Part shown: positions 16,055-24,000 of the stretch, one piece after another
Layout of the letters: each line of letters opens with the position of its first letter
How positions within the stretch are numbered: the stretch's first letter is position 1
Assembly: GCA_017614995.1 (NCBI GenBank)
Contig: JAGAAX010000028.1
Location: 4,641-28,640 of the forward strand
Reading direction: 5' to 3'
Source: Spirochaetaceae bacterium
GTDB lineage: Bacteria; Spirochaetota; Spirochaetia; Treponematales; Treponemataceae
DNA length: 24,000 nucleotides
Translations under genes and position numbers: made by a program
The notes under the pieces: generated by a model
Databases searched by the model: none
Told to the model about the DNA's origin: nothing
Seen by the model: the letters and a program-made list of their open reading frames with translations, nothing else

Positions 16055-16151
16055 CACATTTCCGCCATAATTCTGACACATTTAATAAATAAGATTCTCT
16101 TATAGAAAATCAACGCAGACAAAAAAATTATGATTTTCAGGAGATTTTATT

Positions 16152-19617: not shown

Positions 19618-19665
19618 AGTTGGTTCTCGGTAAATCCTTTAGTAATTGAGCAGTAACTTTTCTGG

Positions 19666-19688
19666 CGGAAATCCGTTACTTGCGTCCG
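19666..19688 (+). repeat. 23-nt repeat, partner of 11749..11771
   Basis: cggaaatccgttacttgcgtccg, preceded by ttttctggcggaaa (19658..19671). That 14-mer also occurs as a direct copy at 11682..11695. Confidence 0.9.
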
Positions 19689-19779
19689 TCTCACTGCTCG
19701 CGTGGGATAATTGGTGGTTAGACTCGCTTCGCTCGCTCCCCGGGTTTGCGTTTGGTCTAATCAATGAATAAGCTTATGT

Positions 19780-19823
19780 GGCAAACCCTGCTAGTTTTCA
19801 CTTTGTGAAAACTAGTGTAGGTC
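19780..19823 (+). repeat. GGCAAACCCTG-hairpin module, copy 3 (different stem)
   Basis: ggcaaaccctg-CTAGTTTTCAC-tttg-TGAAAACTAG-tgtaggtc. Confidence 0.75.
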
Positions 19824-19843
19824 TGTGCAAAGCACGCGCCTTT

Positions 19844-19890
19844 GTCATTGCGAAAATCGGTCACTGAGCGGAGTCGAAGTGACCGATTTT
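19844..19890 (+). repeat. GTCATTGCG-led hairpin with a 12-bp stem
   Basis: gtcattgcg-AAAATCGGTCAC-tgagcggagtcgaa-GTGACCGATTTT, with stems at 19853..19864 and 19879..19890. Confidence 0.75.
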
Positions 19891-19925
19891 TCATTTTATT
19901 GTGGCTTCGACTACGCTCAGCCACC

Positions 19926-19953
19926 GCACCCTTTGCGCACCAGTTACCAGTTT
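19926..19953 (+). repeat. 28-nt direct repeat, copy 1 (contains tandem ACCAGTT ACCAGTT)
   Basis: gcaccctttgcgcaccagttaccagttt matches 20144..20171 at 26 of 28 positions. Confidence 0.85.
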
Positions 19954-20143
19954 GTCTTTTCGCAACAGCTTTATCTTCTGTTAAGGTTTATTCTGCGAAA
20001 AGCGCCGCTTTTTCCTGCGTAAAAACCGGCAGCTTGTGTATCAACTACAAAAGTTGCCGGTGTACAATATCTTTCAAGTTTTGCGAAGCAAAACTTGCAG
20101 CGGTGCGCCAGATAAAGCTTATTATTTGGATTAAGCTTAATGC

Positions 20144-20171
20144 GCACCCGTTGTGCACCAGTTACCAGTTT
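20144..20171 (+). repeat. 28-nt direct repeat, copy 2
   Basis: gcacccgttgtgcaccagttaccagttt. Confidence 0.85.
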
Positions 20172-20239
20172 TGCGAAGCAAAAGTGGGCCGTTTTGCCAG
20201 ATAATTCTAACTCTGTAGATTAATCCAAAGGCAAAACGC

Positions 20240-21216
20240 CTACATAATTGTATTCATAACCGCTGCGAAGGCTTTGACTTGGTCGAGCTTTTCTTCGTCG
20301 TTGATGATGATGCGGTGGGCTTTCTTCTGAATTGCAGCCGGGCTTAAGCCGTTTGCTGTGTCTGCGTCAAGGTATTCTATGAGAAGCTCTTCTGCATATT
20401 CTGCTTCTGATTCATCAAATTGAACTTCTGTTATGTAGACGCTGCCTTTTTTAGTTGATTTGACGGCAACTGCTTCTTCATCGTCAAGCTCAATTTCTTC
20501 TTCTTCGTCAGCATCTTCGGCATCTTCAGCTTCGCTGTCTTCTTCATCGGCGTCTGCCGCTGCCACAGCTTCGGCTTTTTCTTCTGTTCCGTCTGTTTCA
20601 AATTTGCAGTTAAGATAAGCGTTCTCAAAAGCTGTTTCTGTTACCAAGTTGCATTTCTTTGCGAACGGATTATATTGCAGCTTAATCTGAATTTCGTTGT
20701 CTTTGTACAAATCAAGTTCAGACTTGTATATACAGGCGTCAATTTCGGCTTTAGAAAGGTCTTTTTTGCCTTTGTTAAACTGAATAGAAATTTTGGTGAT
20801 TTCAACAGTGTTGTTTTTGGAGGCTGCTGCCTTTTTGCGCATTGTCTTTTCATCACCTGTTTTATTCTCGTTTCTACAGGCTTCTCTTTTTATGCCAAAA
20901 GATGCTATATCTTTGCTTGCAATCTGCTTTTTGTAAAGCTGCTTGTGGTTTTCATCATAAACGATGTAATCAAAAGTTATCTTTTTGATTGGCTGGTCGC
21001 TGATGTTGGTAAAACTGATTGTTGTCGTATCTTTATAAATAGCAGAACTGCCGCCTTTTCTAGAAACCAGACCAGCTTCTGTCACATAATTGATAACAAT
21101 TGGTGTGGAATAATCTGCAAAAGCTTCTTTTAAAATGTCCTGTTCAGAGGCTGCGAATAAAGCCCCCCCCCCGCAATCATAAGACACATTGCGAGGATGC
21201 GAAATTTCTTGTTCAT
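20240..21216 (-). CDS. Secreted acidic protein of unknown function, out of frame at a G10 tract (candidate phase-variable gene)
   Basis: ATG 21216, with AGGAG 6 nt upstream, encodes MNKKFRILAMCLMIAGGG, a signal-peptide-like start. It runs into G10 (21163..21172) and stops at 21130..21132. The 315-aa ORF (20240..21187) is in another frame and has only a GTG start without an SD. A tract of 11 or 8 G fuses the two frames. The protein has a D/E-rich stretch (ADADEEDSEAEDAEDADEEEEIELDDEE). Confidence 0.7.
21163..21172 (-). repeat. Homopolymeric G10 tract (C10 on the plus strand) in the signal-peptide coding region
   Basis: Ten consecutive C at 21163..21172. I noticed no other G/C homopolymer of 8 or more in the window. 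Confidence 0.95.
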
Positions 21217-21250
21217 AAACTTCTCCTATGTTTAAGTGAAACTAAAGAAA

Positions 21251-21278
21251 AGTATATCACGTTTCGGCTGTTTGTAAA
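21251..21278 (-). promoter_or_regulatory. Candidate promoter of the poly-G gene
   Basis: The minus strand reads TTTACA (21278..21273), a 16-nt spacer, then TATACT (21256..21251). It lies about 35 nt upstream of ATG 21216. Confidence 0.35.
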
Positions 21279-21454: not shown

Positions 21455-24000
21455 TTAGAACATTACGCTGTTGTTGATTGTCTTTGTCAGCTTAAAGCGG
21501 ATGTCTTTCAGTTCAAGTCCGCTTTGAGCAAAGAAGAATTTAATCAGCGTATATTTTGAGGCAATCATTATTTCTTTTGAGATTGACTGCGATTCGTAGT
21601 TTGTGCCGTTCCATGTAAAGCTTCCTACTGCTATGCCGTTGCACGAAAGGTGCACAGGTAACTGTGCTACGCCGCCTTGAAGCGGTTTGGCTGTAATTGT
21701 CGTTTCGTAAAATCCGGGTCTTGTTGCGTTTAAGGCAATAGAGAACGTTCCGCCGCGCGTTACTTTTACTTTTGACAGGTCAACCGTAACTTCGCTGTCA
21801 ATATCAAAATATTCAATGTCTGTCTGCTCGTCCTCTGGTTTTGCAGCCCTGTTGATAATCTTTACAGGAATATTTGTATTTGTAAGCCGCTTCTGAGCGC
21901 GCGAGTGCATGAGGAAATGCAGAATGTTTTCGGCACATCTTAAAAGCTCAGCTCTGTCAAGAGTTCCGTCTTTAAGGCTTGCTTCTGTATTGTCGTTGTG
22001 AATGTTCTGCTCGCTGTCAGGGCAGACCATGTAGATGTCGTTCTGCGCCCTTACCATCGCCGCAAAGTTGGTTTTGTTCGGCTTTTCGCCCTCGTCGTTA
22101 AGGCTTGCCCACCAGTCTGTCATTACAATGCCGGTAAAGCCCCATTCATGTCTTAGAATTTTGGTAACAAGGTCATAGTTTGAGCCTGTCCAAATGCCGT
22201 TGAGCGCGCCGTAAGTTGTCATTACTACGTCTGCCTGTGCTTTTTTTACGGCAATTTCAAAACCTTTAAGGTAAATCTCTCTAAGCGCGCGTCCGCTTAT
22301 TACAGAATCTACAACTAGACGGCCGTATTCCTGGTTGTTGCCGCAGAAATGCTTGAGCGAGCCTGTAACGCCTGCGCTGTGCAGTCCTCTGATTACAGCA
22401 GAGGCACATTCGCCGGTGAGAAGCGGGTCTTCTGAAAAATATTCAAAGTTTCTTCCATTAAGCGGATTTCTGTGAATGTTCATTCCTGGCCCGAGCAGAA
22501 TTTCGATATTGTTTGCTACCATTTCAAGACCGGTAAATTGATATAGCTTTGTAATCAATTCGGTGTTGAATGTGCTTGCAATCATGGTGCCATTCGGCAG
22601 GCTGAATGCACTTGCACCGCTGTCAAGGCGCAGACCTGACGGGCCGTCTGTACAGCAGCCGCACGGTATGCCTTTTGCCAGAAGCGACTTTGAAACGCCG
22701 CCAAAAGCTGCTGCCGTTCCCGGCGTAACTTTGGGGCTGCCCATGCCTTCGCCGCGCACAATTTTGATTAAATCCTTATCTGTTAATTGGGCAAGAAAAT
22801 CGGGCATTGTAATTTTGCCGTCAAGAACGCCCTGTAATGGAATTATTTCACCTGTTTTTGCAGGCTGTGTCTGCGGATAGAACATTTTGACCATATCAAG
22901 GTCTTTGGCGCGGCGGTTTTTCTGCTCCGGTTTAGCTGCCTGAATATGTTCCATGGACATTTCAAGCCTGCCGTTTTTCTCAACAAGTTTGAAACGGTCA
23001 AAAGCGCGGGTAGGCTGGGCATAGCCGCCTAAGCGTTCCGTAACAATTGTTTCTGGAATATCGATTGAACCGGCTTCTATACATTCTCTTACAGAAGAAC
23101 CTGCCAAGAATTTGTAAGTTCCTTTTTCAATTACATAGCAGTTTCTGTTGCCGGTTAAGTTGGTGTCATCAAAAGACGCAATTTCGTTTAATGGAATTTC
23201 AAATTCAAGTGTTTCAGACTCTGCCGGTGCAAGCTCTTTTGTTTTGGCAAAGGCTGCAAGAACACGCGCCGGTTTTCCCAAAAGTCCCTGCGGCTGTTCC
23301 ACGTAAATCTGAACAACCTGCTTTGAGGCAGTTTTGCCGGTGTTTGTCACTTTTACATTAAAGCGCGCCGCCGGCACTGAAAGAATTGATTCGGCATTTT
23401 TCAGCACTGCGGAAACAGCTTTTGTTGTTGTCTTGAAATTTTCAGGCTTTATAGAAAATTCCGTATAAGAAAGACCGTAGCCAAAGGGGTAGCGCACCTT
23501 GTCTTTTGCCACTGTCTCAAAATAGCGGTAGCCGACATAGATATCTTCTGAATAGAAGTTGCGCTCTTTGTTGCCAAAATACTTAGAAGATGGATAGTCT
23601 TCTATATTATAGGCGATTGTGTCAGTCAGGCGGCCGGAAGGAGAAGCCTTTCCTGTGAGAATGTCTGCGACACCGTAGCCGCCGACCATTCCGCCCTGCC
23701 ATGCAAGAAGCACTGCGTCAGGTTTTGCTGTGTCTATAAAAGATGAATCTATGATGTTGCCGGTGTTCAGTACAACTGTAAATGACTTGAACGCCGCGCG
23801 CACATTCTTAAGGAGATTTTCTTCTTCTTCAGAAAGACGCCATGAGCCGGGCTCGTCTTTGTTGTCTTTGTCTTCTCCGGCTAGACGCCCAATAATTACA
23901 AGAGCGGCATCACTTTGAGAAGCTATATGCGCAACAAATTCTTTTGTAAGCGGCATTTCTTTCTGGCTCCATGGGTCATTTCCCCAGCCGATGCCTTCTT
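21455..24000 (-). CDS. Glycoside hydrolase family 3 (beta-glucosidase/xylosidase-like), permuted domain order, 5' end beyond the window
   Basis: GH3 C-domain motifs come first (AVLLAWQGGMVGGYGVADILTGKASPSGRL, PFGYGLSYTEF), followed by an Fn3-like segment. The catalytic-domain motifs come later (GRNFEYFSEDP, KHFCGNNQE, WGFTGIVMTDWW). The frame stays open upstream of the track's ATG 23956 up to base 24000. Confidence 0.85.
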   Translation of the reverse strand, partial: EGIGWGNDPWSQKEMPLTKEFVAHIASQSDAALVIIGRLAGEDKDNKDEPGSWRLSEEEENLLKNVRAAFKSFTVVLNTGNIIDSSFIDTAKPDAVLLAWQGGMVGGYGVADILTGKASPSGRLTDTIAYNIEDYPSSKYFGNKERNFYSEDIYVGYRYFETVAKDKVRYPFGYGLSYTEFSIKPENFKTTTKAVSAVLKNAESILSVPAARFNVKVTNTGKTASKQVVQIYVEQPQGLLGKPARVLAAFAKTKELAPAESETLEFEIPLNEIASFDDTNLTGNRNCYVIEKGTYKFLAGSSVRECIEAGSIDIPETIVTERLGGYAQPTRAFDRFKLVEKNGRLEMSMEHIQAAKPEQKNRRAKDLDMVKMFYPQTQPAKTGEIIPLQGVLDGKITMPDFLAQLTDKDLIKIVRGEGMGSPKVTPGTAAAFGGVSKSLLAKGIPCGCCTDGPSGLRLDSGASAFSLPNGTMIASTFNTELITKLYQFTGLEMVANNIEILLGPGMNIHRNPLNGRNFEYFSEDPLLTGECASAVIRGLHSAGVTGSLKHFCGNNQEYGRLVVDSVISGRALREIYLKGFEIAVKKAQADVVMTTYGALNGIWTGSNYDLVTKILRHEWGFTGIVMTDWWASLNDEGEKPNKTNFAAMVRAQNDIYMVCPDSEQNIHNDNTEASLKDGTLDRAELLRCAENILHFLMHSRAQKRLTNTNIPVKIINRAAKPEDEQTDIEYFDIDSEVTVDLSKVKVTRGGTFSIALNATRPGFYETTITAKPLQGGVAQLPVHLSCNGIAVGSFTWNGTNYESQSISKEIMIASKYTLIKFFFAQSGLELKDIRFKLTKTINNSVMF

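Follow-up and report, generated by a model that had tools for sequence, protein, structure and literature searches.

Simple-sequence contingency loci are textbook features of host-adapted pathogens such as Neisseria, Haemophilus, Campylobacter, Helicobacter and Treponema pallidum. In the pilC genes of Neisseria, the G tract reportedly lies within the signal-peptide part of the coding region, as Jonsson et al. are said to have described in 1991. The locus analysed during this work belongs to a Spirochaetaceae bacterium and was found in a window of 24,000 nt, by which we mean the whole stretch of DNA under analysis. It resembles pilC1/pilC2 in combining a poly-G tract at the 5' end of a coding sequence, a length that shifts the reading frame and a surface or secreted protein that would be turned ON or OFF. 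It differs by an unrelated protein and phylum, and by the nature of the evidence, since clonal switching was demonstrated experimentally in Neisseria while the variation seen here is between samples only. Among these genes, pilC1 is classified as a long-tract contingency gene (PMC5231331).

The closest case described in spirochaetes is that of T. pallidum, which is traditionally assigned to the Spirochaetaceae, the family to which the window's organism is also annotated. In this species, 24 of the 46 poly-G/C tracts of at least 8 nt vary among clonal isolates and A/T tracts are constant, six of the 22 poly-G/C variations among clones fall within predicted genes (among them a 5'-end frameshift in TP0969 with 9 versus 8 G), and intragenic G/C runs of 8–11 differ between isolates with N-terminal or internal frameshifts as a consequence (PMC10013896). 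The intragenic tracts of TP0969, TP0127, TP0135 and mcp1 behave as the one reported here, with variable G/C runs and stable A/T runs. The settings differ: T. pallidum is a pathogen with dozens of tracts genome-wide and its genes are non-homologous, whereas our locus comes from a rumen/gut commensal with a single tract in the roughly 150 kb sampled. Variable poly-G is also tied to putative envelope protein genes in T. pallidum (tprE/G/J, tp0126 and tprL; PMC7864442), and the initial annotation had pointed to tpr as a parallel. This comparison stands in so far as variable poly-G tracts occur near envelope genes, but it does not extend to the mode of action. Indeed, the tpr, tp0126 and tprL tracts are located upstream of or within the promoter and alter transcription via spacing (PMC7864442), whereas here the promoter occupies 21278..21251, the tract begins 42 nt downstream of the ATG and it is the frame that is affected. 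Because tpr tracts sit in promoters, the tpr analogy is loose and the TP0969-type intragenic tracts are a better parallel.

Intragenic G/C tracts of ~8–13 nt with ON and OFF lengths in surface genes are likewise known from the phasomes of Campylobacter, Helicobacter and Neisseria, where tracts are also occasionally locked by interruption (PMC6321876, PMC2823697, PMC5084427). Those genomes contain tens of loci, many of them encoding glycosyltransferases or restriction-modification enzymes, while a single orphan secreted protein is concerned here. The mechanism itself is not new, and intragenic poly-G frameshifts are already documented in T. pallidum. In the searchable literature, we found no description of a locus of this type from rumen spirochaetes. 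The present locus offers a clean case with several alleles from an uncultured commensal lineage, to which the swapping of signal-peptide modules is added.

The tract, its reading frames and the encoded protein

The anatomy of the locus and its frame arithmetic are directly established from the window (Table 1). Every detail given in the initial annotation, i.e. the Shine-Dalgarno sequence, the 6-nt spacer, the ATG at 21216, the G10 tract and the stop after 28 codons, was found on the minus strand. The frame opened by this ATG codes for MNKKFRILAMCLMIA and enters the tract after codon 15. As had been stated, the long ORF (20240..21187, minus strand, 315 codons) is read in another frame and starts with a GTG that lacks a Shine-Dalgarno sequence, its N-terminus being MSYDCGGG. 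When tract lengths of 7 to 15 G were generated in silico, 8, 11 and 14 G yielded proteins of 324, 325 and 326 aa beginning with MNKKFRILAMCLMIAGG(G)(G)ALFAASEQ, which agrees with the initial proposal that 8 or 11 G would join the two frames into a protein of about 325 aa. Tracts of 7, 10 and 13 G yielded 27–29 aa, and those of 9, 12 and 15 G yielded 23–25 aa.

Table 1. Features of the tract gene, in coordinates of the window
Feature	Position	Strand	Details
Sigma-70-type promoter-like element, TTTACA-16 nt-TATACT with TG extended -10	21251..21278	-	10/12 matches, TG present
Shine-Dalgarno sequence AGGAG	21223..21227	-	6 nt ahead of the ATG
Start codon ATG of the secreted protein	21214..21216	-	Full-length relatives begin here with MNKKF/MNKRF
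28-codon frame in the G10 (OFF) state	21130..21216	-	Reads MNKKFRILAMCLMIAGGGLYSQPLNRTF, then TAA 21132..21130
G10 homopolymer (C10 on the plus strand)	21163..21172	-	nt +45..+54 of the ORF, hydrophobic core of the predicted signal peptide
Rest of the gene, in frame with 8, 11 or 14 G	20240..21163	-	Predicted signal-peptide end ALFA/ASEQ, ~303-residue mature protein and TAG
Beta-sandwich (Ig-like) domain predicted with confidence, repaired-protein residues 35-160	20738..21115	-	AlphaFold2 pLDDT about 70-89
Acidic low-complexity linker, residues 211-248	20474..20587	-	23/38 D/E; pLDDT <35; length varies among relatives

This uninterrupted homopolymer, placed inside the ORF near its 5' end (G10 in the window, G7–G13 in relatives), is the sole G or C run of at least 6 nt in the 24-kb window, whose G+C content is 42.8%. 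About 0.001–0.004 runs of ten G/C would be expected there by chance, and the tract is thus far beyond chance for the window. It stands alone in a larger sample as well, with no other G/C run of at least 7 nt in 153 kb of related contigs. Since no other tract-bearing gene is present in the ~150 kb sampled, these data bring no evidence for a 'phasome'.

The signals required for expression are well preserved. Both promoter hexamers are kept in every allele with a tract, whether ON or OFF, and also in loci L012 and L018, while the motif TAGGAGA is invariant across 13 of the 13 distinct aligned alleles; promoter, Shine-Dalgarno sequence and ATG are all conserved in OFF alleles. The tract gene looks monocistronic, as the upstream gene coding for a GH3 glycosidase has its own terminator-like hairpin at its end. 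Regarding public annotation, MBO4438986.1 starts the tract gene at the GTG without Shine-Dalgarno sequence at 21187 (315 aa) and in MBR4824714.1 a G12 allele is started at an internal GTG (282 aa); neither of them is flagged as a pseudogene or as frameshifted. With such spurious GTG starts, the frameshift goes unseen and so does the signal peptide.

A search of 5.8 billion clusters gave 18 cluster-level relatives of the repaired protein, and a full scan with an HMM across 1.84 billion representatives returned only 8 proteins, all unannotated. Named members of the family are all recorded as 'MAG: hypothetical protein [Spirochaetaceae bacterium]'; one of the genome hits is the rumen MAG RUG14308. 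That the protein belongs to no recognisable family, as initially noted, was confirmed by the lack of any significant match in Pfam and of any match in NCBIfam; the Pfam entry DUF5780 was discarded at 10.6 bits (E = 0.7), below its gathering threshold of 28.2 bits. The post-tract portion is ~70–97% identical to full-length relatives. All of these relatives, members retrieved only by profile search included, carry an n-h-c signal peptide ending with ..FA and followed by D/E/Q/A/T. Judged from these sequence features, the upstream ATG is the true start and export appears to be a family trait, with a probable Sec-type cleavage at ...ALFA/ASEQ. A lipoprotein reading was rejected because the PROSITE PS51257-type lipobox expression fails for the repaired, tract-free and clade-B forms; this rule asks for [AGS] at position -1 before the cysteine, and spirochaetal lipoboxes are looser. 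Tract-free alleles carry LMLC.

The long D/E-rich segment mentioned in the initial annotation corresponds to the acidic linker of Table 1, and AlphaFold2 confidence is low for this linker and for the C-terminal part. Foldseek comparison with the PDB gave only generic Ig-like matches (IrmA 5ek5, ApaG and DUF1425) with a TM of about 0.5 or lower. The best reading of the product is a secreted, lineage-restricted beta-sandwich/acidic protein of rumen Spirochaetaceae.

Tract length across related strains

Twenty-five related loci (L numbers) were fetched as DNA and their tract lengths were read from the assembled consensus sequences. The G10 allele of the window strain is present in three other contigs, L022, L023 and L024, the first being 100% identical to the window over 13.8 kb and the second showing 1 mismatch in 6.7 kb. 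One of these G10 contigs was assembled with MEGAHIT, L023 is a scaffold of another study and L024 a Logan assembly; together they represent at least two independent samples and two studies. This recurrence rules out a one-off assembly error and answers the initial concern that G10 might be a slip for G11.

A second strain of the window's species (about 97% ANI) exhibits G13 in L001 and G12 in L004, L005 and L025. Over 11.2 kb, L001 and L004 share 99.955% identity; apart from 4 mismatches they differ by one 1-nt gap, which is the tract itself. The G12 of L025 versus the G13 of L001 is another length difference within this strain. Between the window and L001, there are 0 substitutions from -60 to +250 for about 3% difference elsewhere. 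Such invariant flanks between the G10 and G13 strains imply that the tract changes much faster than its surroundings. Control A/T runs of 7–9 nt are constant in these strains, apart from one A7/A6 exception, and tract length thus differs between near-identical strains more than these runs do. The exception is an intergenic A7 at 16121..16127, between sensor-kinase and creD-like genes, which is A6 in L001 and L025.

At the same site, the sister clade (58–65% protein identity) carries a G7 tract in L003 and L013–L016 that is in frame (ON) owing to a downstream sequence shorter by 2 nt. Its product begins with MNKRFCIIA[IM]C[LI]MIAGGLFATSEQ. This allele was directly observed in five fetched contigs from at least 4 samples, and two more G7 alleles were deduced from protein N-termini. 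In the same clade, L002 has an out-of-frame G8, so that ON and OFF lengths coexist at the family level, and L006–L011 have an interrupted and out-of-frame G3TG4 (GGGTGGGG) in at least 6 samples. The tract is therefore not of fixed length among strains: the window's species shows G10, G12 and G13, the sister clade G7, G8 and G3TG4. This is what the initial annotation had anticipated. The N-termini of cluster members tell the same lengths apart: MSYDCGGG(G) corresponds to G10/G13, MRGGG to G12, MRGG to G8 and MGLF to the interrupted allele.

The G3TG4 allele (L006:2535-2620, also in L007–L011) is accompanied by an identical 304-aa downstream ORF in samples from several studies. It is presumably non-slipping and apparently represents a 'locked-OFF' clone that has spread. 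The wide distribution of this OFF allele suggests that some settings do not require the protein.

The tract is missing from most family members, and tract-free alleles read TGCGCGGCG at its site; GTDB genomes and JGI metagenomes provided 5 loci only, all tract-free. Within the window's species, no ON tract allele was found among 3 lengths (G10, G12 and G13) and 4 distinct alleles, and the search of the 5.8 billion clusters with the repaired protein would have caught any ON allele in that collection. Three OFF lengths would arise by chance with a probability of (2/3)^3 = 0.30, and the missing ON allele is compatible with chance and equally with gene loss.

A candidate switch and its alternatives

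Slipped-strand translational phase variation is probably the best explanation for these observations, with the window's strain in the OFF state. The phase variation initially proposed as a candidate is supported by the length polymorphism, by the G7 ON allele of the sister clade and by the in-frame signal peptides of relatives. The gene would form a simple-sequence contingency locus in which the poly-G tract gains or loses G by slipped-strand mispairing at replication. Promoter and Shine-Dalgarno sequence would drive translation from the ATG at 21216 and tract length would set the frame. With 8, 11 or 14 G, ribosomes would read through to a precursor of 324–326 aa composed of the signal peptide, the beta-sandwich domain, the acidic linker and a helical C-terminal part; any other length would lead to a stop after 23–29 codons and no exported protein. 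For the G10 of the window, the insertion of one G or the deletion of two would restore the ON state. The OFF alleles call for opposite shifts (G10 and G13 versus G12), which fits random slippage and not a programmed shift. We infer slippage as the cause, together with its reversibility, the switching rate, export and any adaptive value, which might lie in varying an antigen or adhesin that is secreted or displayed at the surface in the rumen/gut. A well-documented poly-G switch on a secreted orphan protein would suggest that these uncultured rumen/gut commensals, too, face fluctuating selection on an exposed protein, for which phage, host immunoglobulin and competitors are candidate selective agents.

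The gene itself appears otherwise functional. Its mature-region ORF is intact in 22 of 22 copies, with no second frameshift or stop, and none of the 17 OFF copies harbours a second lesion. The two OFF strains differ by 13.5 synonymous versus 8.5 non-synonymous changes (dS 0.078, omega 0.15), an excess of synonymous changes that departs from neutrality with p about 1e-5, and omega is about 0.25 family-wide; this sign of purifying selection has to be read with the mosaic history of the gene as a caveat. Lesion-free copies, an omega of 0.15 and a conserved promoter and Shine-Dalgarno sequence do not correspond to a plain pseudogene, unless it is a very recent one.

The tract gene is a recombination mosaic. 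L012 belongs to clade A throughout (95–100% identity to the window) except for nt 0..95 (L012:172-270), which are 95–98% identical to the tract-free group C. In the same vein, L021 (337-430 and the region upstream of it) combines a group-C promoter with a clade-B body, and L002 has a 3' end of group C. These three mosaics imply that tract-bearing and tract-free signal-peptide modules, equivalent to 21120..21216 of the window, have been exchanged between lineages. The substitutions between the window and L001 in the tract gene sit in its 3' two-thirds, so the signal of purifying selection may in part be older than the present OFF state. Given the mosaic structure, with a 3' region that possibly diverged ahead of the arrival of the shared 5' module, the omega argument loses weight, and dN/dS was downgraded as a proof of selection during the OFF state. 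A control at two levels could be imagined from this exchange, although we consider it quite improbable: fast poly-G slippage would toggle expression, and short-patch recombination between rumen spirochaete lineages living together would swap a signal-peptide module of ~100 nt, either switchable (tract-bearing) or constitutive (tract-free). The expression of one secreted protein could then be evolvable or fixed, depending on the population's choice of module. It is likewise improbable, though conceivable, that long tracts (10–13 G) are partly decoded by transcriptional slippage and that 'OFF' alleles are leaky.

The main rival to phase variation is a mutational hotspot without switch function, in which a tract born by chance from a GC-rich patch has inactivated a dispensable gene, now recently dead and on its way to loss, with a neutral drift of tract length. 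We regard this scenario as unlikely, but the lack of an ON allele in the window's own species, the spread of the locked-OFF allele and the mostly tract-free relatives make it a real competitor. All clade-A tract alleles are OFF, G3TG4 is common, the majority of relatives manage without a tract, the comparison of L002 with L006 shows 3 non-synonymous changes but 0 synonymous ones, and the omega evidence may be older than the inactivation. Against it, the tract has been retained uninterrupted and even lengthened (from 7 to 13) in three lineages with a mature-region dS of 0.26–0.9, the in-frame G7 of L003 and L013–L016 occurs in at least 4 samples, and OFF copies combine an absence of second lesions (0/17) with an untouched promoter and Shine-Dalgarno sequence and an omega of 0.15 between strains.

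Expression despite the DNA frame is a second alternative, with RNA polymerase stuttering or ribosomal frameshifting on GGG GGG and a tract that would set the expression level instead of being an ON/OFF switch. It would account for ORFs that stay intact and under selection with every allele out of frame, and for the free drift among 10, 12 and 13 G. Well-documented transcriptional slippage in bacteria takes place at A/T runs, which counts against this explanation. In addition, recoding would have to proceed by -1 for G10 and G13 but by +1 for G12, and a conserved slippery heptamer or a stimulatory structure is absent; no Rfam match was obtained around the tract at E <0.6. A recoding site is expected to have a fixed shift direction and a conserved slippery sequence, and neither is seen here. 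The in-frame G7 and the tract-free relatives need no recoding, and G3TG4 would not be rescued by it. Opposite shifts and the lack of a conserved slippery site thus make a rescue by slippage very unlikely. The least probable explanation is a sequencing or assembly artefact hiding a tract that is truly in frame, e.g. with 11 G. Long poly-G is indeed error-prone and the lengths come from consensus assemblies. However, G10 was recovered in three further contigs by different assemblers (at least two samples, two studies) and G12 in three assemblies (L004, L005 and L025), while the 7, 8 and G3TG4 alleles are short enough for reliable reading and A/T runs are stable. At such tracts, >90% of Illumina reads agree in clonal T. 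pallidum (PMC10013896). This concordance of independent assemblies makes an artefact very unlikely, and slipped-strand phase variation is the reading that we retain as the most likely.

Surrounding genes and spacers

The tract gene is embedded in a conserved synteny composed of the GH3 gene, the tract gene, a small ORF, luxS and a two-component system with creD. The GH3 glycosidase (21455..24000, minus strand) runs off the edge of the window and is 947 aa long in L001. Its domain order is permuted, with the GH3 C-terminal domain followed by an Fn3-like domain and the GH3 N-terminal domain. An in-frame stop suspected near its 5' end was rejected, as the ORF simply leaves the window.

Downstream of the tract gene, the spacer 19618..20239 consists of 620 nt that are ORF-free and contain short dispersed repeats, i.e. 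a 29-nt pair with 93% identity and a 22-nt pair with 91% identity including the palindrome TTTTGCGAAGCAAAA. This spacer has no match in Rfam and does not align between the window strain and the second strain. The small gene near it differs too, encoding a P-loop-like protein of 204 aa in the window versus 175 aa in L001. On the other side of the tract gene, L001 possesses ~450 nt of extra intergenic DNA (L001:9292-9742) between the GH3 gene and the tract-gene promoter, which the window lacks between 21446 and 21454. This extra DNA contains an 82-nt direct repeat with 89% identity.
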